DNA from: a virus
Lineage: Duplodnaviria > Heunggongvirae > Uroviricota > Caudoviricetes
Strand: one strand, 5' to 3'
Virus record (IMG/VR): IMGVR_UViG_2681813321_000012
Location: 1-7,589 of that record
Length of the DNA: 7,589 bases
Below are positions 1 to 7,589 of the stretch, one piece after another. The translations under genes were made by a program, and so were the position numbers. Each line of letters begins with the position of its first letter. Position 1 is the stretch's first letter. The notes beneath the pieces were generated by a model that made no database searches, was not told the origin of the DNA, and was given only the letters and a program-made list of their open reading frames with translations.

Positions 1-532
1 GTCGGTCCTGCACGAACGTCAGCGTCTGCCCGTTCCATACCGGCATACAGCGCATCGCCGAGCAGAAATCACTGAGCACATCCCACGCCTTGCGCTGTGT
101 GGTCAGGTACGCATTACAGGTAATGCGCGGCTCCGTGCCGCCAAAGCCATCCGGCACTGACTGGTCGCAGTACTGGCCGATGACATACAGCGCCCATTTG
201 TCCACATCCGCCGCACCAAGACGTTTCCCCATGCCGTAGCGTGGATGGGTCAGCATATCCCACAGACACCAGGCCATGTTGTTGCTGTATGCCGGTTTAA
301 ACGTTCCGTCCCAGATACCGCTGTATTGCCGCGTCTGCGGGTTATAATTCGACGGCACCTGCAGAATACGCCCGCGCAGATGATAATTACGGCTCACCTG
401 CTGGCTGCCGAACTGCTCCGAGTCCACCTGCACGCCGACCAGTGCCGTGTTCGGGTAGCCCTGTTTCACATCGATGATTTCGGTGTATGACGACCAGAGC
501 GTTTTGTTCTGCAGCTGGTCTGTGGTGCTGTC
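1..532 (-). CDS. J: Tail tip host-specificity protein J, internal fragment (partial at both ends); diverged second copy of 703-1234
   Basis: Seen in sequence: 1-532 aligns base for base with 703-1234 (offset 702, a multiple of 3), with scattered mismatches (e.g. 65 g vs 767 a). The minus-strand J frame stays open to the window edge, which is why no stop-bounded ORF is reported. Interpreted as the end of a separate contig or paralogous copy. Confidence 0.6.
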
Positions 533-542
533 NNNNNNNNNN
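533..542. other. Run of 10 N (assembly or scaffold gap placeholder)
   Basis: Ten consecutive n characters; the flanking sequence is duplicated elsewhere in the window. Confidence 0.95.
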
Positions 543-1792
543 ACAAGCTCTGTCGCCGTCTCCCAGCCGTTATTCGGGTCAATCCAGTTCACCTCAACGG
601 CATTATGGCGGTCCTTCAGGGCGCTGAAGCTGTAGCGGAACGGCGCGCCATCATCCGGCATCACCACATTACTGCGGTTATAGGTCCACACCTTATCTGA
701 TGGTCGGTCCTGCACGAACGTCAGCGTCTGCCCGTTCCATACCGGCATACAGCGCATCGCCGAGCAAAAATCACTGAGCACATCCCACGCCTTGCGCTGT
801 GTGGTCAGGTACGCATTACAGGTAATGCGCGGCTCCGTGCCGCCAAAGCCATCCGGCACTGACTGGTCGCAATTCTGGCCGATGACATACAGCGCCCATT
901 TATCCACATCCGCTGCACCAAGACGTTTCCCCATGCCGTAGCGCGGATGGGTCAGCATATCCCACAGACACCAGGCCATGTTGTTGCTGTATGCCGGTTT
1001 AAACGTTCCGTCCCAGATACCGCTGTATTGCCGCGTCTGCGGGTTATAATTCGACGGCACCTGCAGAATACGCCCGCGCAGATGATAATTACGGCTCACC
1101 TGCTGGCTGCCGAACTGCTCCGAGTCCACCTGCACGCCGACCAGTGCCGTGTTCGGGTAGCCCTGTTTCACATCGATGATTTCGGTGTATGACGACCAGA
1201 GCGTTTTGTTCTGCAGCTGGTCTGTGGTGCTGTCCGGCGTCATTCTGCGCATCCGGATATTAAACGGGCGCGGCGGCAGGTTATCCACCACCACCGAGGC
1301 CAGATACTGCGAGGTGGTTTTGCCCTTAATGGTGATGTCTTTTTCCGTCACCCAGCCACCGTTACGCTGTATCTGAACCAGCAGGCGGACTTCCGACGGA
1401 TTCCGGTCCCCCTTTGAGGTGGTTTCCACCAGTGCCTGCACACCGAAGGTAAAGCGCAGACGGTCGATGTTTGCCGACGTGATGGTCCGGGTGATCGGCG
1501 TGTCATATTTCACTTCCGTACCCAGCACCGTCTCGGAGCCGGAGGATTCAAATCCCTCCGGCGGTGTCTGCTCCTGCTCACCTGCCCGGAACACCACCGT
1601 GACACCGGATATATTGGTATTCCCCTCACTGTCCAGCACCGGCGTACTGTTCAGCAGCACGCTTTTTAATCCGTCCACCGGACCTTCAACCGGCCCTTCG
1701 CTGATGGCATCGATCACACTCAGCAGCTGCGTGGACTTCAGGTTGTCCCTCGCTTCGCGCGGGGTATGCCCCTTACTGCTTCCTTTACCCAT
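543..1792 (-). CDS. J: Tail tip host-specificity protein / central tail fibre J, N-terminal ~416 codons (3' end interrupted by the N run)
   Basis: Manual translation of the minus strand from the ATG at 1792-1790 gives MGKGSSKGHTPREARDNLKST, matching the lambda gpJ N-terminus as I recall it (MGKGSSKGHTPREAKDNLKS). A purine-rich GGAG/GAGGA motif lies just upstream (1793-1804). The ORF track shows no minus-strand ORF here, consistent with an open frame lacking a stop in the window. Gene order after I matches lambda. Confidence 0.9.
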
Positions 1793-1804
1793 TCCTCACA
1801 CTCC

Positions 1805-1833
1805 ATAAACAACAAAGCCGCCCAAAAGGCGGC
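1805..1833 (-). terminator. Rho-independent terminator downstream of the lipoprotein gene
   Basis: Minus-strand reading: GCCGCC-TTTTG-GGCGGC hairpin (plus 1817-1833, 6-bp all-GC stem, 5-nt loop) followed directly by the U-rich tract TTTGTTGTTTAT (plus 1816-1805). It sits about 25 nt after the lipoprotein stop codon. Confidence 0.55.
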
Positions 1834-1858
1834 TCATGAGTTACGACAGGATTAACTA

Positions 1859-2197
1859 TTATTTACATGCATTAACACTATCAGCAAAAATTTTTGGCGT
1901 TAATGCTGGTACACGTTCATAAAGAGTAAAACTACTGCCATTTCCTGCTTTTTTGATATCAAGCACAACATCATATCCCCCCATAGCCTGTGGAACTAAA
2001 AGGCTTACCCCATTCTCAATAGGAAGGGATGTTATAGGTGTTCCATTACCAGCCCATTGTCTGGATATGCAGCCTGACAATTCATCAATATTTTTTAATG
2101 AATTACCTTCCATTACAGGTTTTCCGGATTTTACGTAATCCAAAGATTTACATCCTGTTAAGGCAATAATCGTGCAGAATAAAATCGTTTTGTTCAT
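1859..2197 (-). CDS. Predicted outer-membrane lipoprotein of unknown function (moron between I and J), 112 aa
   Basis: The ORF track gives 1859-2209 with a TTG first codon; I prefer the in-frame ATG at 2197-2195, which yields MNKTILFCTIIALTGC... This has a typical lipoprotein signal peptide: basic N-terminus, hydrophobic core and lipobox L-T-G-C. The residue after the lipidated Cys is Lys, not Asp, so Lol sorting to the outer membrane is expected. Hand-counted GC is about 33-37% against roughly 60% or more in the neighbouring tail genes. I do not recognise the protein family. Confidence 0.75.
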   Translation of the reverse strand: MNKTILFCTIIALTGCKSLDYVKSGKPVMEGNSLKNIDELSGCISRQWAGNGTPITSLPIENGVSLLVPQAMGGYDVVLDIKKAGNGSSFTLYERVPALTPKIFADSVNACK

Positions 2198-2270
2198 ATA
2201 GCTAACCAATAGAATAATTATCAGTGTTCGATATAAATATTAAATCAGTTAGAACATGAGTAAAATAATA
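2198..2270 (-). promoter_or_regulatory. AT-rich intergenic region upstream of the lipoprotein gene; possible moron promoter
   Basis: 73-nt AT-rich spacer between the I stop (2271) and the lipoprotein ATG (2197). On the minus strand it contains a GATAAT (-10-like) hexamer at plus 2217-2222, preceded by TG two bases upstream. I found no convincing -35 or Shine-Dalgarno motif. Speculative. Confidence 0.2.
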
Positions 2271-2912
2271 TTACCGCCCAATTACCACAACCTGACCACC
2301 ATCCCCTTCATCTGCCGTGCTGATCTCCTGAGATGCCACACGTGACCCCACGCGCATTTCACCGTACAGAACAGGCAGGACATTGCCCTGGGCAACCATG
2401 TTATCCAGTGAGGAGAAATAGGTGTTCTGTTTGCCGTTATCCGTTGTCTGTGTACGGGGAGTTCTGGCTTTCGGTGCCAGCATCTGCGCCACACCACCAA
2501 GCGTCATCGCCGCACCCATTGAAAAGAGAATGTCACTGAAAGCGATACTGATCCCCGGCATCCAGATTGCCGTAGCAATCAACGCCGCACCCAGCACCGC
2601 CTGAAACACACCGCCACTTTTTGCTCCCGCAAGACGCGGCACGATGTGGATCACGGCACCATTTGCCAGCGGCTCATTAAGACGGGATGATAATTCGGTT
2701 TCTCCTGCATCCCGCCCGGCAATCCGTACCTGATACCAGCCATCGCTCAGTTTCTGACGAAACGCCGGGAGCTGTGTGGCCAGTGCCCGGATGGCTTCAG
2801 CCCCCGTTTTCACACGAAGGTCGATGCGGCGGCCAAATCGTTGCAAATCCCCGTAAAGGCAGATGCGTGCCATGCCCGGTGACGCCAGAGGGAGTGTGTG
2901 CGTCGCTGCCAT
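2271..2912 (-). CDS. I: Tail tip assembly protein I, 213 aa
   Basis: The translation MAATHTLPLASPGMARICLYGDLQRFGRRIDLRVKTGAEAIRALATQLP... matches lambda gpI as I recall it. It has a central hydrophobic Gly/Ala-rich segment and a C-terminus ending ...DEGDGGQVVVIGR. ATG at 2912 with GAGAGG about 12 nt upstream. The 5' end overlaps the 3' end of K by 103 nt in a different frame, the same overlap I recall from the lambda map. Confidence 0.9.
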   Translation of the reverse strand: MAATHTLPLASPGMARICLYGDLQRFGRRIDLRVKTGAEAIRALATQLPAFRQKLSDGWYQVRIAGRDAGETELSSRLNEPLANGAVIHIVPRLAGAKSGGVFQAVLGAALIATAIWMPGISIAFSDILFSMGAAMTLGGVAQMLAPKARTPRTQTTDNGKQNTYFSSLDNMVAQGNVLPVLYGEMRVGSRVASQEISTADEGDGGQVVVIGR

Positions 2913-3553
2913 TTGTCGGTATACCTCTCTCGTTTGCTCAGTTGTTCAGGAATATGGTGCAGCAGCTCGCCATCACCACAGTAAATAGCGGCATGATTCG
3001 GCACCGATGAACCAAAGCAGCACAGCAGCACATCGCCCGGCTGCGCCGCTGACAACGGCACCTGATACAGCCCCGTTGCCTCCAGATTATCCAGATAGAG
3101 ATTCTGACCGTGACGCCACCAGTCATCCTCACGATGAAAGTCCGGCATCTCAATCCCCGCCAGATGGTAAGCATCCCGGAACAGTGTGTAACAGTCCGTC
3201 ACCCCGTACTCAAAGCGCCGCCCGGTGAGATGCGGCACACAGCGGAACTTGTGAATCGCCCCCCGGCAGACCAGCCACCACGGCAAATCGCTCTGCACCT
3301 GTAGCCGCCGGTCAGCCTCACTCAGCCAGGGCAGACCACCGGGGTGGCTGTGGACCAGCGCCACAATCTCACCCTGCATCTCTGCCTGCAGCCAGTCCTC
3401 CGGAGCCATCCGGAAATAATCCTCCGGCTCACCGGAAATATTCACGCCGGGAAAATATCTTTCCCCCTCCGGCGTTCTCACCACGAAGCCGCACGACTCC
3501 GCTGGCGCACATCGCCGGGCGTGCGCCAGAATCGCTGATTCTGTCTCTGTCAT
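2810..3553 (-). CDS. K: Tail tip assembly protein K (MPN/JAMM-like plus NlpC/P60-like domains), 247 aa as called from the first ATG
   Basis: Translation contains H-S-H-x7-S-x2-D (HSHPGGLPWLSEAD), a JAMM/MPN metalloprotease signature, and a downstream Cys/His region (TDCYTLF ... NHAAIY) typical of NlpC/P60. The ATG at 3553 is 5 nt after the L stop. An alternative internal ATG at 3409, preceded by GGAGGA, would give the 199-aa form annotated for lambda K. Confidence 0.85.
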   Translation of the reverse strand: MTETESAILAHARRCAPAESCGFVVRTPEGERYFPGVNISGEPEDYFRMAPEDWLQAEMQGEIVALVHSHPGGLPWLSEADRRLQVQSDLPWWLVCRGAIHKFRCVPHLTGRRFEYGVTDCYTLFRDAYHLAGIEMPDFHREDDWWRHGQNLYLDNLEATGLYQVPLSAAQPGDVLLCCFGSSVPNHAAIYCGDGELLHHIPEQLSKRERYTDKWQRRTHSLWRHRAWHASAFTGICNDLAAASTFV

Positions 3554-3558
3554 GGGAT

Positions 3559-4257
3559 TTACTGCGAAAGTTTGTTAATGGAAAGGAAGCCGCCAAAGTT
3601 GCCGACGTTATTGCGAAACTTACAACCGCTCAGGCATTTGCTGCATTTATCCTTCGTGATATCGGACGTTGGCTGGTCATATTCATCCGCGACCGCCGGA
3701 CCGTGATAACCGCACTCATCGCCGCGATAGGTCCAGGTGCAGGTGTTGGCCAGCATGATACGTCCCGGAAAAACAGCGCCGTCCGTTTCCGTCGGCGTGG
3801 ACAGTACAAAGGAGGCACTGACCGCGCTCAGTTCGCTGCACTGCTCGATGCGCCAGCGGCTGATCACCTCCTGCTCCGGATCGGCGTCGCTGTTTCCGTT
3901 GACGAAATTCACCGCATCCAGAAAACGGGCGTAAACCTTACGCCTGACCACCGTTCCGCCGACCAGACTCTGCATATCTTCCGCCATGCCGGTGACCATA
4001 CCGTACAGGTTAGAAACCGTCAGCGTGGGGCGCGTACTGGTGCCTTTGCCATTCAGTTCAAAACCACTCCCCTGAATGGGATACGGCTGATACTGTCGCC
4101 CCTGCCAGGTGACCGGCTCACCTTTTTCGTTCTGCTCATTACAGAAAAAATAACGTTCTCCACCGACCTCTGTCAGGTCGATTTCCCAGAGCACCACGCT
4201 GGCAGACTGCTCCGCACGGGTGCATTCATTCAGTGTTTCCTGTCGGATATCCTGCAT
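3559..4257 (-). CDS. L: Tail tip complex protein L, 232 aa
   Basis: The translation MQDIRQETLNECTRAEQSASVVLWEIDLTEVGGERYFFCNEQ... has the same length as lambda gpL. The C-terminus carries clustered cysteines (CTWTYRGDEC ... CSKCLSGC). The start ATG overlaps the M stop (TGATG at 4259-4255). Confidence 0.95.
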   Translation of the reverse strand: MQDIRQETLNECTRAEQSASVVLWEIDLTEVGGERYFFCNEQNEKGEPVTWQGRQYQPYPIQGSGFELNGKGTSTRPTLTVSNLYGMVTGMAEDMQSLVGGTVVRRKVYARFLDAVNFVNGNSDADPEQEVISRWRIEQCSELSAVSASFVLSTPTETDGAVFPGRIMLANTCTWTYRGDECGYHGPAVADEYDQPTSDITKDKCSKCLSGCKFRNNVGNFGGFLSINKLSQ

Positions 4258-4586
4258 CAGTTCACCACCTGTTCAAACTCTGCGCTGAACTCAACACGCA
4301 GCATACTGACCCGCGACGACCATTTTGCGCAGGTCACCTTTATCTGCCGGTAGCCATAAGGCGGCGTCCACAGAAAGGCCTTCCAGCCCCCGTGCTCAGC
4401 CAGAAACGACTCCAGCGCCGCGGCCTCCCAACGGGGAACAGAAAGCGTCACGCTGTACGTTTTCAGGTCAGTGTTCAGCCCGGCAGGCGCTCGCTGGGAA
4501 TAGCCATCACCAAAGCGCACCTTTCTTACGGAAGGGGCAGAAGCCACATCCATACCGGGTTTCACTTTCCAGCGGAAGGTTTTCAT
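4257..4586 (-). CDS. M: Tail tip complex protein M, 109 aa
   Basis: The translation MKTFRWKVKPGMDV...EFSAEFEQVVN has the same length as lambda gpM. The start overlaps the stop of the upstream H fragment (ATGA at 4586-4583). Confidence 0.95.
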   Translation of the reverse strand: MKTFRWKVKPGMDVASAPSVRKVRFGDGYSQRAPAGLNTDLKTYSVTLSVPRWEAAALESFLAEHGGWKAFLWTPPYGYRQIKVTCAKWSSRVSMLRVEFSAEFEQVVN

Positions 4587-5182
4587 CGTCCACCTCCGGA
4601 GAACAGACCACCATCGCGCATCTGCCCGGTCACAACATCCATTGCCGCCTTACGGGCTACGTCATAAACAGCCTTCAGTGCCTGTGGCCCTATCTGACCG
4701 TTCGTGCCGTCGTTGTTAATCACCACATGGTTATTCTGCTCAAACGTCCCGGACGCCTGCGACCGGCTGTCCGCCATGCTGCCCGGTGTACCGACATAAC
4801 CGCCGGTGGCATAGCCGCGCATCAGCCGGTAGAGATTCCCCACGCCAATCCGTCTGGTTGCCTCCTTCGTGAAGACGAATTCACCGCGGTGAACAATTCC
4901 CGCTGGCTCATATTTGCCGCCGGTTCCCGTAAATCCTCCGGTTGCAAAATGGAATTTCGCCGCAGCTGCCTGAATGGCTGTACCGCCTGATGCGGATGCG
5001 CCGCCACCAACAGCCCCGCCAATGGCGCTACCGATACTCCCGACAATCCCCACCATTGCCTGCTTAAGCAGAATTTCTGTCATCATGGACAGCACGGAAC
5101 GGGTGAAGCTGCGCCAGTTCTGCTCACTGCCGGTCAGCATCGCTGCCATATTCTGTGCAATACCGTCAAAGGTCTGCGTGGC
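4583..5182 (-). CDS. H: Tape measure protein H, C-terminal 200 codons (5' end interrupted by the N run)
   Basis: Translation ATQTFDGIAQNMAAMLTGSEQNWRSF ... MRDGGLFSGGGR is a diverged copy of the C-terminus of the H ORF at 5952-7589. It includes a Gly/Ala-rich hydrophobic segment. The track fuses it to the L fragment on the other side of the gap as a 347-aa ORF with XXXX, which I treat as an artefact. Confidence 0.85.
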   Translation of the reverse strand, partial: ATQTFDGIAQNMAAMLTGSEQNWRSFTRSVLSMMTEILLKQAMVGIVGSIGSAIGGAVGGGASASGGTAIQAAAAKFHFATGGFTGTGGKYEPAGIVHRGEFVFTKEATRRIGVGNLYRLMRGYATGGYVGTPGSMADSRSQASGTFEQNNHVVINNDGTNGQIGPQALKAVYDVARKAAMDVVTGQMRDGGLFSGGGR

Positions 5183-5192
5183 NNNNNNNNNN
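5183..5192. other. Run of 10 N (assembly or scaffold gap placeholder)
   Basis: Ten consecutive n characters; the flanks are duplicated elsewhere in the window (offset 1369). Confidence 0.95.
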
Positions 5193-5626
5193 GCGCTCAG
5201 TTCGCTGCACTGCTCGATGCGCCAGCGGCTGATCACCTCCTGCTCCGGATCGGCGTAACTGTTTCCGTTGACGAAGTTCACCGCATCCAGAAAACGGGCG
5301 TAAACCTTACGCCGGACCACCGTTCCGCCGACCAGACTCTGCATATCTTCCGCCATCCCGGTGACCATACCGTACAGGTTAGAAACCGTCAGCGTGGGGC
5401 GCGTACTGGTGCCTTTGCCATTCAGTTCAAAACCGCTCCCCTGAATGGGATACGGCTGATACTGTCGCCCCTGCCAGGTGACCGGCTCACCTTTTTCGTT
5501 CTGCTCATTACAGAAAAAATAACGTTCTCCACCGACCTCTGTCAGGTCGATTTCCCAGAGCACCACGCTGGCCGACTGCTCCGCACGGGTGCATTCATTC
5601 AGTGTTTCCTGCCGGATATCCTGCAT
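5193..5626 (-). CDS. L: Tail tip complex protein L, N-terminal 144 codons (3' end interrupted by the N run); second copy
   Basis: Translation MQDIRQETLNECTRAEQ ... RIEQCSELS is identical to the N-terminal part of L at 3559-4257 except for one residue (Y vs D in VNGNS[Y/D]ADPEQ). Confidence 0.85.
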
Positions 5627-5955
5627 CAGTTCACCACCTGTTCAAACTCTGCGCTGAACTCAACACGTAACATACTGACCCGCGATGTCCATTTTGCGCA
5701 GGTCACCCTGATCTGCCGCCAGCCATAAGGCGGCGTCCACAGAAAGGCTTTCCAGCCCCCGTGCTCAGCCAGAAACGACTCCAGCGCCCTGGCCTCCTCG
5801 CGGGAGACAGAAAGCGTCACGCTGTACGTTTTCAGGTCAGCATTCAGCCCGGCAGGCGCACGCTGGGAATAGCCATCACCAAAGCGCACCTCCCTGACGG
5901 AAGGAGCCGATGTCACATCCATCCCGGGTTTCACTTTCCAGCGGAAGGTTTTCAT
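5626..5955 (-). CDS. M: Tail tip complex protein M, 109 aa (second, diverged copy)
   Basis: Same length and start/stop overlaps as the M gene at 4257-4586. The two proteins differ at 9 of 109 positions by my hand alignment. Confidence 0.95.
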   Translation of the reverse strand: MKTFRWKVKPGMDVTSAPSVREVRFGDGYSQRAPAGLNADLKTYSVTLSVSREEARALESFLAEHGGWKAFLWTPPYGWRQIRVTCAKWTSRVSMLRVEFSAEFEQVVN

Positions 5956-7589
5956 CGTCCACCTCCGGAGAACAAGCCACCATCACGCATCTGTGCCTGA
6001 ATTTCATCACGGGCACCCTTGCGGGCCATGTCATACACAGCCTTCAGCGCCTGTGGTCCAATCTGCCCGTTCGTGCCGTCGTTGTTAATCACCACATGGT
6101 TATTCTGCTCAAACTTCCCGGACGCCTGCGACCGGCTGTCCGCCAGACTGCCCGGTGTACCGACATAACCGCCGGTGGCATAGCCGCGCATAAGCCGGTA
6201 AAGATTCCCCACGCCAATCCGGCTGGTTGCCTCCTTCGTGAAGACAAACTCACCACGGTGAACAATCCCCGCTGGCTCATATTTGCCGCCGGTTCCCGTA
6301 AATCCTCCGGTCGCAAAATGGAATTTCGCCGCAGCTGCCTGAATGGCTGTACCGCCTGATGCGGATGCGCCGCCACCAACAGCCCCGCCAATGGCGCTAC
6401 CGATACTCCCGACAATCCCCACCATTGCCTGCTTAAGCAGAATTTCTGTCATCATGGACAGCACGGAACGGGTGAAGCTGCGCCAGTTCTGCTCACTGCC
6501 GGTCAGCATCGCTGCCATATTCTGTGCAATACCGTCAAAGGTCTGCGTGGCCACGCTTTTTACCTGCGAAAAACTGTCCGTCGCACTTTCCGCCCACTCA
6601 CCCCAGCCGGACTTCATCCCGGCCATCCAGCTTCCACGAAGCTGCTCCTCCGCAGACCAGGTGTTCTTCAGTGCAGATGTGGCCTTCGCCAGCGCATCCG
6701 GATTATCACCGTACACCTCACGAAGGCGCTGCTCTTCCGACTCCCGCTGCGCCTGACGGTCGGTGAGTCCGCGGGCTTTTGCGCTGATTGCCGCCTGCTT
6801 CGCACTCTGCTGCTGTTCAAACCGCGCCGCCTGCTGTGCCAGCTCATTCAGCCGTTTCTGGTGTTCAACCTTGTCGCCCAGCTCAGCCAGCTGGCGTTTG
6901 TACTCCAGCGTCTCTTTCTCATGAGCCAGCAGGGATTTTTCCTGCTCAGATAACTGCCGTTTCGTGGCGGCCTCTTTCAGGACCACATACTGATTTTCCG
7001 CTTTCCATAAATCCCGGCGCTGCTGGCTGATTTTTTCATTCGCACCGCTGTGCTTCTCCAGCGTCCTGAGCTCAGTTTCAAGCGACAGCATGGCTGCATG
7101 CGCCCGGTCTTCCTGGCGCTCACCGGCAGACACCTTCACACCTGACGGCTTTTTCTGCGTCGATTCATAATCCTTTTTTGCCGACGCCATCAGCGTGTTG
7201 TAATCCGCCTGCAGGATTTTTCCGTCTTTCAGGGCCTTATTCAGCTCTTCCTGCCGGGCGGTATATTTCTCCAGTGGCGTCAGCAGGCGCTCATACGCCT
7301 TCTGCGCCTCTCCGGTATACTTCAGCTGTGACGACTCACGCTCAGCCCTGTCCCTTGCCGCCAGTTCACCGGCTTTTTCCATATCCGACTGCAGCGTGGC
7401 CGCTGCCAGACCCAGACGGGCATTTTCCCGGTCATCCCATGCGCCCTGAAGGTTGGCCCGGAAAGAGGAGGTTTTACCGCGGCGCTGGCTCCGGCTCTGG
7501 TACCACTGCCATTTTTTATCCGCCTCATCAAATGCCTTCTGCGCACTGGCGAGCATATCCGCTGAGGATTCCGGACGACCGATATCCAG
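5952..7589 (-). CDS. H: Tape measure protein H, C-terminal 545 codons (5' end beyond the window)
   Basis: The frame is open from the stop at 5952-5954 to the window edge. The Met at 7556 in the track is only the first in-window Met, not the true start (lambda H is about 853 aa as I recall). Translation is rich in E/K/Q/A/L heptad-like sequence (coiled coil) with a Gly/Ala-rich hydrophobic segment near the C-terminus and the ending ...MRDGGLFSGGGR. The gene order H-M-L matches lambda. Confidence 0.9.
   Translation of the reverse strand: MDIGRPESSADMLASAQKAFDEADKKWQWYQSRSQRRGKTSSFRANLQGAWDDRENARLGLAAATLQSDMEKAGELAARDRAERESSQLKYTGEAQKAYERLLTPLEKYTARQEELNKALKDGKILQADYNTLMASAKKDYESTQKKPSGVKVSAGERQEDRAHAAMLSLETELRTLEKHSGANEKISQQRRDLWKAENQYVVLKEAATKRQLSEQEKSLLAHEKETLEYKRQLAELGDKVEHQKRLNELAQQAARFEQQQSAKQAAISAKARGLTDRQAQRESEEQRLREVYGDNPDALAKATSALKNTWSAEEQLRGSWMAGMKSGWGEWAESATDSFSQVKSVATQTFDGIAQNMAAMLTGSEQNWRSFTRSVLSMMTEILLKQAMVGIVGSIGSAIGGAVGGGASASGGTAIQAAAAKFHFATGGFTGTGGKYEPAGIVHRGEFVFTKEATSRIGVGNLYRLMRGYATGGYVGTPGSLADSRSQASGKFEQNNHVVINNDGTNGQIGPQALKAVYDMARKGARDEIQAQMRDGGLFSGGGR

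Follow-up and report, generated by a model that had tools for sequence, protein, structure and literature searches.

Evidence for a 247-residue lambda-type tail tip assembly protein K with a predicted complete JAB/JAMM domain, and for a nucleotide missing from the lambda reference sequence

The closest described relatives of the gene analyzed here are K of phage lambda and the TAPK proteins of Iyer et al. (2006; PMC1779556). Lambda gpK is required for tail assembly (PMC12617516) and was not detected in virions by mass spectrometry or cryo-electron microscopy (cryo-EM) (PMC10721106). In the passages of Iyer et al. on which we draw, a protein that joins a JAB domain to an NlpC/P60 domain (TAPK) is described beside a ubiquitin-like protein (TAPI) whose C-terminal glycines are conserved; TAPK is predicted there to process TAPI, the JAB domain being proposed to free the ubiquitin-like part of I at a C-terminal glycine. 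In this study, we have analyzed a stretch of 7,589 nucleotides (nt) from a virus of the Caudoviricetes (IMG/VR record IMGVR_UViG_2681813321_000012, positions 1 to 7,589), here called the window, in which an open reading frame (ORF) of 247 codons plus stop, starting with ATG, occupies positions 2810-3553 of the minus strand. We are highly confident that this ORF encodes a full-length, 247-residue tail tip assembly protein K of the lambda type. A preliminary description of this DNA had claimed that the frame is open for 247 codons from an ATG 5 nt after the L stop, 48 codons more than in the 199-residue lambda annotation, and that the extension is needed for a complete MPN/JAMM fold; the ORF list and the positions of the L stop (3561-3559) and the K ATG (3553-3551) agree with the first part, and the evidence set out below bears out the second.

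The locus closely resembles that of lambda. K is placed between L (3559-4257), whose product matches Pfam Phage_tail_L (E = 2e-101), and the ubiquitin-like I (2271-2912), whose product matches Pfam Lambda_tail_I, all on the minus strand; J lies downstream of I in an identical Escherichia coli chromosomal locus, which gives K the gene position of a lambda-type K, and the gene order H-M-L-K-I-J is the same as in lambda. In that E. coli locus, the gene is annotated by PGAP, the NCBI annotation pipeline, and in RefSeq as a 247-residue C40 family peptidase (WP_001300322.1). Lambda-group phages are approximately 96 to 97% identical to the K region of the window at the DNA level. Lambda gpK (NP_040598, AAA96551, and UniProt P03729 TIPK_LAMBD; 199 residues) is an orthologue, approximately 96% identical over residues 49 to 247, whose database entry is without the first 48 residues; the corrected lambda K (LC730321 and PV340536) has 247 residues and is collinear with the window protein. 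K also shares its architecture with TAPK, from which, judging by the same passages of Iyer et al., it shows no structural difference; those passages do not discuss the start codon of lambda K or an error in the reference. The 247-residue K is therefore an already known and ordinary member of the published TAPK family.

The N-terminal domain is where the length of K matters. Pfam PF14464 (Prok-JAB) matches residues 4 to 98 over profile positions 4 to 103 of 114, with 50.8 bits (E = 1.8e-13) against a gathering cut-off of 25 bits; the 199-residue form scores 22.9 bits, under that cut-off, and covers profile positions 63 to 103 alone. The JAMM motif has been defined as E-x(n)-H-S/T-H-x7-S-x2-D (PMC300881). 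In K it is complete: H68-S69-H70, S78, and D81 stand at the exact H-S-H-x7-S-x2-D spacing, and E19, the Glu of the motif, lies inside the extension. The earlier claim that the long form would put H-x-H near residue 68 is thus accurate, and so is the expectation of a conserved Glu ahead of it. E19 is Glu in all 90 unique close sequences, and its aligned counterpart in the solved JAB proteins 2kks, 2kcq, and 5lda is the Glu of "PnEaCG." For more distant comparisons, 1.84 billion cluster representatives were searched, giving 2664 matches, from which 104 two-domain representatives at 31 to 65% identity were used. In these, E19 is kept in 99, along with the other extension residues C21 (94/104), G22 (101/104), and N38 (100/104), and conservation of the remaining JAMM residues is comparable: H68 in 101, S69 in 95, H70 in 100, S78 in 95, and D81 in 101 of the 104. 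On these comparisons, residues ~1 to 105 of K are a complete JAB/JAMM (MPN+) metalloprotease domain with predicted zinc binding and activity, and the 199-residue form would be missing the catalytic Glu as well as some 45% of the JAB fold.

An AlphaFold2 model of K, built on a 31-sequence alignment (67 to 97% identity), is in agreement with this assignment. Its mean predicted local distance difference test (pLDDT) score is 79.6, and the highest values in the model, 92 to 95, fall on residues 1 to 40. Helices are modeled at residues 3-15, 51-60, and 79-88 and strands at 20-27, 30-36, and 62-69; the extension therefore supplies helix 1 and strands 1 and 2, which precede the strand with H-S-H at its end, and the N-terminal part of K is predicted to have the MPN fold. 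The top match of the model in the Protein Data Bank (PDB), found with Foldseek, is 5ld9, Pyrococcus furiosus JAMM1 (root mean square deviation of 2.6 Å over 110 columns), followed by 5lda (also JAMM1) and then by MepS/Spr, Rpn11, CSN5, and AMSH. Structure prediction had been suggested as a check, and in the model of the long form, residues 1 to 48 indeed take the place of helix 1 and strands 1 and 2 of a JAMM1-like fold. K shares both the minimal JAB fold and the E...HSH-x7-S-x2-D motif with archaeal JAMM1 and the stand-alone bacterial JAB proteins 2kks and 2kcq; a profile of the distant K proteins aligns with 2kks and 2kcq from profile positions 2 to 4, and the profile match to JAMM1 desampylases, the best structural match, starts at the N-terminal helix. 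Unlike JAMM1, K carries a fused NlpC/P60 domain and is encoded in a phage tail operon, and its presumed substrate is gpI, not SAMP. Since it scores only 26.9 against a cut-off of 130 for the NCBIfam desampylase family, K is not a desampylase equivalog.

The alternative in which the extension is an untranslated leader, the real product has 199 residues, and the upstream frame is open by chance can be judged from how this region has evolved. It would agree with the lambda reference annotation and UniProt TIPK_LAMBD and with the strong Shine-Dalgarno-like sequence ahead of Met49, and, by a rough estimate from stop-codon frequency, 48 extra open codons have about a one-in-seven chance of occurring. 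The weight of the extension therefore lies in the domain match, the substitution pattern, and conservation, the open frame itself not being beyond chance. Among 86 close unique sequences, the ratio of nonsynonymous to synonymous substitution rates (dN/dS) over codons 2 to 48 is 0.26 in the K frame (bootstrap confidence interval, 0.09 to 0.62), and it rises to 1.34 and 2.35 when these nucleotides are read in the two alternative frames. When four divergent loci are added, the extension has a ratio of 0.29, the remainder of the JAB domain 0.19, and the NlpC/P60 domain 0.10. The minimum numbers of changes at codon positions 1, 2, and 3 of the extension are 33, 24, and 61, with the third position dominant. 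The synonymous and nonsynonymous pattern, which the preliminary description had proposed to check, is hence coding-like, with purifying selection in the K frame only. Frameshifts or stops in the extension of homologues, which it had named as evidence to the contrary, were also looked for: an ATG-initiated ORF of 247 codons is present in 110 of 111 full-length homologous loci, and the only breaks of the frame, at codon 45, belong to the lambda reference and to three records that do not differ from it. Fourteen extension residues are invariant in the 31-sequence alignment (I8, L9, A12, A16, P17, E19, C21, G22, V24, Y33, P35, N38, S40, and F47), the catalytic Glu among them. Furthermore, 98 of the 104 distant homologues have their own N terminus 0 to 14 residues ahead of the position aligned with I8, which makes the family-wide N terminus coincide with Met1 of the window protein. 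The untranslated-leader explanation is contradicted by these comparative data, as it is by the short form falling under the Prok-JAB threshold and by Pfam and PDB profile matches that start at residues 2 to 4, and we regard it as barely credible. By the same comparisons, the 48 extra codons are coding sequence and part of the putative JAB/JAMM domain, in line with the earlier proposal of the long form as the true product, which domain content, conservation, substitutions, frame integrity, and the model all support.

At the DNA level, a search for K homologues with the distant representative P0155 returned no loci, and one with P0119 returned only 3; a scan of genome contigs gave mainly lambda contamination and close relatives. 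Three loci that were considered as K homologues of 45 to 65% identity (L047 and L048 in CP178302 and L050 in CP182556, from E. coli ECMA0423 and Shigella SFBU1023) were rejected and left out as indel-ridden assemblies. They show 61 to 87 gap openings relative to lambda over approximately 2.7 kb, which suggests that, although labeled "complete" chromosomes, they are uncorrected long-read assemblies rather than carriers of real pseudogenes.

The second question concerns where translation of K begins. In nearly all related loci, the divergent L137 and L138 among them, 4 to 5 nt separate the L stop from the K ATG. Because the ATG follows so closely behind the L stop and has no Shine-Dalgarno sequence, K is probably coupled to L by termination-reinitiation at the first ATG. 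The internal ATG of codon 49 is, as described previously, preceded by GGAGGA, with 10 nt between them. The preliminary description had left room for both forms being made, that is, the 247-residue protein from the coupled ATG and a nested, in-frame 199-residue protein from Met49, with an intact NlpC/P60 domain and a crippled JAB domain, an arrangement that can be likened to lambda C/Nu3 and S107/S105. Met49 is encoded by ATG in 85 of the 90 unique close sequences, ATG49 and GGAGG occur together in 81, the spacing of 10 to 11 nt is within the usable range, and gene callers pick this start. Against this, the spacing is longer than optimal, and position 49 is mostly occupied by Ile in the distant homologues: of the 104, 62 have Ile, 13 have Leu, 6 have Val, and just 14 have Met. 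GGAGG is also present in two of the five close sequences that lack ATG49 (L029, with CTG, and L034, with ATC), and the need to encode Glu-Pro-Glu presumably can account for it. In addition, a fragment starting at residue 49 would carry an incomplete JAB domain, without the model's first helix and two of its strands. Across the wider family, a nested pair of products thus finds no comparative support, and we consider it improbable; likewise, it is doubtful that in the lambda-like clade Met49 is a genuine second start whose product, without the JAB Glu, could regulate or scaffold the processing of I. Judged across the homologues, a shorter product from Met49 is not a conserved feature of the wider family.

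Gene callers of the Prodigal type often choose Met49 because of the GGAGG 10 to 11 nt upstream. The clusters of 199-residue proteins (P0057-59 and P0066, with thousands of members) were considered as a sign that truncated genes are common. The DNA behind one of them, L009, speaks against this reading: its K frame is open throughout, the 199-residue Logan gene call sits within 247/250 open codons, and for this cluster the length is due to the start chosen by the gene caller.

How, then, did lambda K come to be annotated with 199 residues? In NC_001416/J02459, K spans 14276..14875 and begins MSPEDWLQ, which aligns with the window protein from residue 49 onward, as the preliminary description had stated. 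It had also implicitly taken the upstream extension of the lambda reference to be in frame with the annotated K, and this was wrong: there is a TGA in the K frame at 14255-14257. An ATG at 14134, 6 nt after the L stop, opens a 76-codon ORF that reads MTQTESAILAHARRCAPAESCGFVVSTPEGERYFPCVNISGEPEA and is then out of frame. When the site is aligned (alignment A1), the lambda reference has GAGGC-TATTTCC, the window has GAGGATTATTTCC, and other lambda records have GAGGCGTATTTCC; the reference is one G short behind position 14266 (GAGGC[G]TATTTCC), the reference-type site without it being GAGGCTATTTCC. The missing G puts codons 1 to 45 out of frame and makes Met49 the first available start. The length and the start given earlier for the lambda annotation were therefore correct, but a conservative choice of start does not explain them by itself, since the missing G forces that choice. 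We think it very likely that the G is absent from the lambda reference through a sequencing error and that this error left no choice but the 199-residue annotation. Once the G is put back, lambda K, as read from the DNA, likewise has 247 residues.

The G is found in resequenced lambda stocks, in lambda derivatives, and in lambda-identical contigs of unrelated assemblies. Matches of 302 nt to the 301-nt query, that is, with the G, were obtained in LC730321 (Lambda_AGU, 48,503 bp), PV340536 (lambda, from an MG1655 lysogen), the hybrid phages OM418625-7 (lambda imm21/imm434/h434 imm21), DE3 of BL21(DE3), KT232076, HK629/HK630, and others. A scan of one genome per species yielded 20 contigs at least 99.5% identical to lambda in de novo assemblies of unrelated bacteria; all 20 have the G, each has exactly one gap, which is the extra G, and 15 have 0 mismatches. 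The exact 247-residue lambda K occurs on at least 1000 contigs of the protein collection, and its 76-residue counterpart, the frameshift product of the reference, has no occurrence among 15 billion proteins. Only four records are without the G: J02459, its RefSeq copy NC_001416, OR474059, and OR974322. The site contains GGCG, a G+C run of the sort prone to compression on sequencing gels; the lambda reference sequence dates from 1982. The variant table of the MutaMouse lambda-gt10 transgene lists "14266 C>CG" in all copies (PMC6760142).

It could be argued that the deletion is real in the cI857 S7 stock that was sequenced and that K works there as a protein of 199 residues, as two fragments, or by frameshifting near codon 45. 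The deletion is, after all, seen in two records besides J02459/NC_001416, and a real frameshift does occur elsewhere in laboratory strains of lambda, in stf (PMC10721106). However, OR474059 carries an UNVERIFIED label, and OR974322, a cloacal swab record, shows 100% identity with the lambda reference over the stretch examined; we infer that both derive from that reference. Together with the G in the 20 independent contigs, in LC730321 and PV340536, in the three hybrid phages and DE3, and in MutaMouse, the absence of the frameshift product from the protein collection, and the susceptibility of the site to gel compression, this makes a real deletion very unlikely. An explicit statement of the correction to lambda K was not found in literature searches; there is a generic remark on "9 differences" in the lambda sequence (PMC9119081).

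The records themselves are not uniform. In OM418625 (lambda imm21), EU078592 (DE3), and JQ086376 (HK630), the K DNA is correct and in frame, yet a 600-nt, lambda-style K is annotated; KT232076 has correct K DNA and a different start, with K annotated as 636 nt; and PV340536 and PGAP annotate K at its full 744 nt, so that at least three different K starts are in circulation. The precomputed Pfam domains for short K forms in the protein database consist of NlpC/P60 only. Lambda DNA occurs in species-representative assemblies of unrelated bacteria and in metagenome-assembled genomes (loci L014-L025, L032, L033, L035, L036, L039, L041, L045, and L051), including Neobacillus, Shewanella, Pseudomonas, Chromatium, Bradyrhizobium, Kitasatospora, Paenibacillus, and Leeuwenhoekiella; some of these contigs are near full length (~48.4 to 48.5 kb), and some have ~1x coverage. 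This DNA is most probably laboratory carry-over, which is the reason that lambda K bears names such as "MULTISPECIES ... [Bacteria]" and "Staphylococcus aureus."

The C-terminal part of K is present in both the long and the short forms. Pfam PF00877 (NLPC_P60) matches residues 111 to 224 over the whole profile (positions 1 to 105 of 105), with 50.4 bits (E = 2.3e-13; gathering cut-off, 23 bits), and Foldseek and profile searches match this domain to MepS/Spr. C121, H187, and H199 are kept in 99, 100, and 100 of the 104 distant homologues, respectively, and are assigned as a catalytic triad by conservation and position; residues ~111 to 224 are thus predicted to form an NlpC/P60 cysteine peptidase domain. 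Compared with E. coli MepS/Spr (C40), the domain matches the Pfam profile in full as well as the structures, and the Cys and His residues are kept; unlike MepS/Spr, K has no signal peptide or lipobox and is cytoplasmic and nonvirion (PMC10721106). For these reasons, a role for K as a cell wall hydrolase is doubtful.

Based on the domain content, the hypothesis of Iyer et al. as given in the passages cited, and the cryo-EM data on gpI, a processing role for K can be proposed. The preliminary description had presented K as a combination of JAMM-like and NlpC/P60-like motifs with I as the ubiquitin-like partner, and those passages describe them so. In the cryo-EM structure of the tail tip, gpI was resolved only over residues 135 to 223 (PMC10721106), a pattern that is compatible with removal of an N-terminal ubiquitin-like domain, although it is no proof of it. 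We postulate that the 247-residue protein, translated from the ATG 5 nt behind the L stop and probably by termination-reinitiation coupling, would be a cytoplasmic, nonstructural processing or assembly factor acting on I, and that its JAB domain, perhaps together with the NlpC/P60 domain, would process the ubiquitin-like I during tail tip assembly. In a weaker version, confined to the long form, K may be a deubiquitinase-like enzyme that removes the ubiquitin-like domain of gpI and leaves residues ~135 to 223 in the tail tip.

Some points count against the interpretation of K as a full-length protein with this role and of the lambda reference as erroneous. The first K ATG has no Shine-Dalgarno sequence, while Met49 has GGAGG at a distance of 10 to 11 nt, and the assignment of initiation to the first ATG is drawn from sequence comparison. 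The AlphaFold2 alignment was shallow, with 31 sequences at least 67% identical, and the predicted template modeling score was only 0.63. The peptidase activity of K and the identity of gpI as its substrate are predictions. Finally, OR474059 and OR974322 lack the G, as the reference does. The coordinates of the features of K are collected in Table 1.

Table 1. Features of the K gene in the window
Feature	Position(s)	Strand	Evidence
Complete K coding sequence, tail tip assembly protein K (JAB + NlpC/P60)	2810..3553	-	ORF list, Pfam, homologous loci
48-codon N-terminal extension relative to the 199-residue lambda annotation; helix 1 and strands 1-2 of the predicted JAB domain	3410..3553	-	dN/dS, conservation, pLDDT
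Codon 19 (GAG), Glu of the JAMM motif, missing from the 199-residue form	3497..3499	-	Conservation, alignment to solved JAB proteins
Motif H68-S69-H70...S78...D81, assigned zinc-binding part of the JAMM motif	3311..3352	-	Translation, conservation
JAB/MPN domain, residues ~4-105	3239..3544	-	Pfam Prok-JAB, PDB profile matches, Foldseek
NlpC/P60 (C40) papain-like peptidase domain, residues 111-224	2882..3223	-	Pfam NLPC_P60, conservation, Foldseek
NlpC/P60 conserved residues C121, H187, and H199	3191-3193 (C121), 2993-2995 (H187), 2957-2959 (H199)	-	Conservation
Internal Met49 ATG (3409-3407) and GGAGGA (3425-3420)	3407..3425	-	Sequence
L stop codon and 5-nt spacer ahead of the K ATG, no Shine-Dalgarno sequence	3554..3561	-	Sequence
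K 3' end (codons 214-247) overlapping the 5' end of gene I, 103 nt	2810..2912	-	ORF list

The start of gene I also differs between records: lambda uses the first Met, which gives the 103-nt overlap with K, PGAP starts 66 nt further in (191 residues), and PV340536 starts at the K stop (190 residues). The first Met is kept in all divergent loci examined, Met14 is lost in Escherichia albertii L034, and the later starts would cut into the first strand of the ubiquitin-like domain. The synonymous substitution rate in the K frame drops from 0.21 to 0.047 in the K/I overlap, but synonymous variation along the 3' end of K is already low from codon 196 on, ahead of the overlap, and does not locate the start of I. 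Given the conserved first Met and the drop in the overlap, the comparisons favor a long I with a dual-coding K/I overlap.

Unlike lambda, in which the I-J interval is a spacer of only 60 nt, the window carries a small gene for a lipoprotein-like product in this interval. This ORF of 116 residues (1859-2209, minus strand) has a lipoprotein-like N terminus (...LFCTIIALTGCKS...), its product is named by PGAP as hypothetical protein WP_001332187.1, and it looks like a moron inserted in the tail operon. The window itself is a scaffold with two 10-N gaps (533-542 and 5183-5192) and near-duplicate segments: positions 1-532 and 703-1234 are 98.9% identical, and 3824-5182 and 5193-6551 are 94.8% identical. 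It holds two copies of M, one full and one partial L, and two H C termini; probably, contigs of two related prophages were joined. Since the window is duplicated with N gaps, a 347-residue ORF (4583-5626, minus strand), in which the N terminus of L is joined to the C terminus of H across the Ns, is a scaffolding artifact.

In conclusion, the gene itself is ordinary and is correct in RefSeq bacterial genomes; what is useful, as a by-product, is a documented explanation of the 48-residue shortfall in lambda-derived K entries. The main value of these results lies in curation, namely, correction of the lambda reference (NC_001416 and J02459) and of UniProt TIPK_LAMBD, in which the 199-residue K is 48 residues short and omits the JAB catalytic Glu, very probably because one G is missing after 14266. 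The records of DE3, HK630, and lambda imm21 have taken over the short annotation although their own DNA is correct, and cloning, modeling, mutagenesis, or proteomics searches based on the 199-residue K deal with an incomplete domain. With a corrected K entry, the right construct becomes available for a direct test of the 2006 prediction, in which the ubiquitin-like tail protein I is processed by a JAB peptidase.

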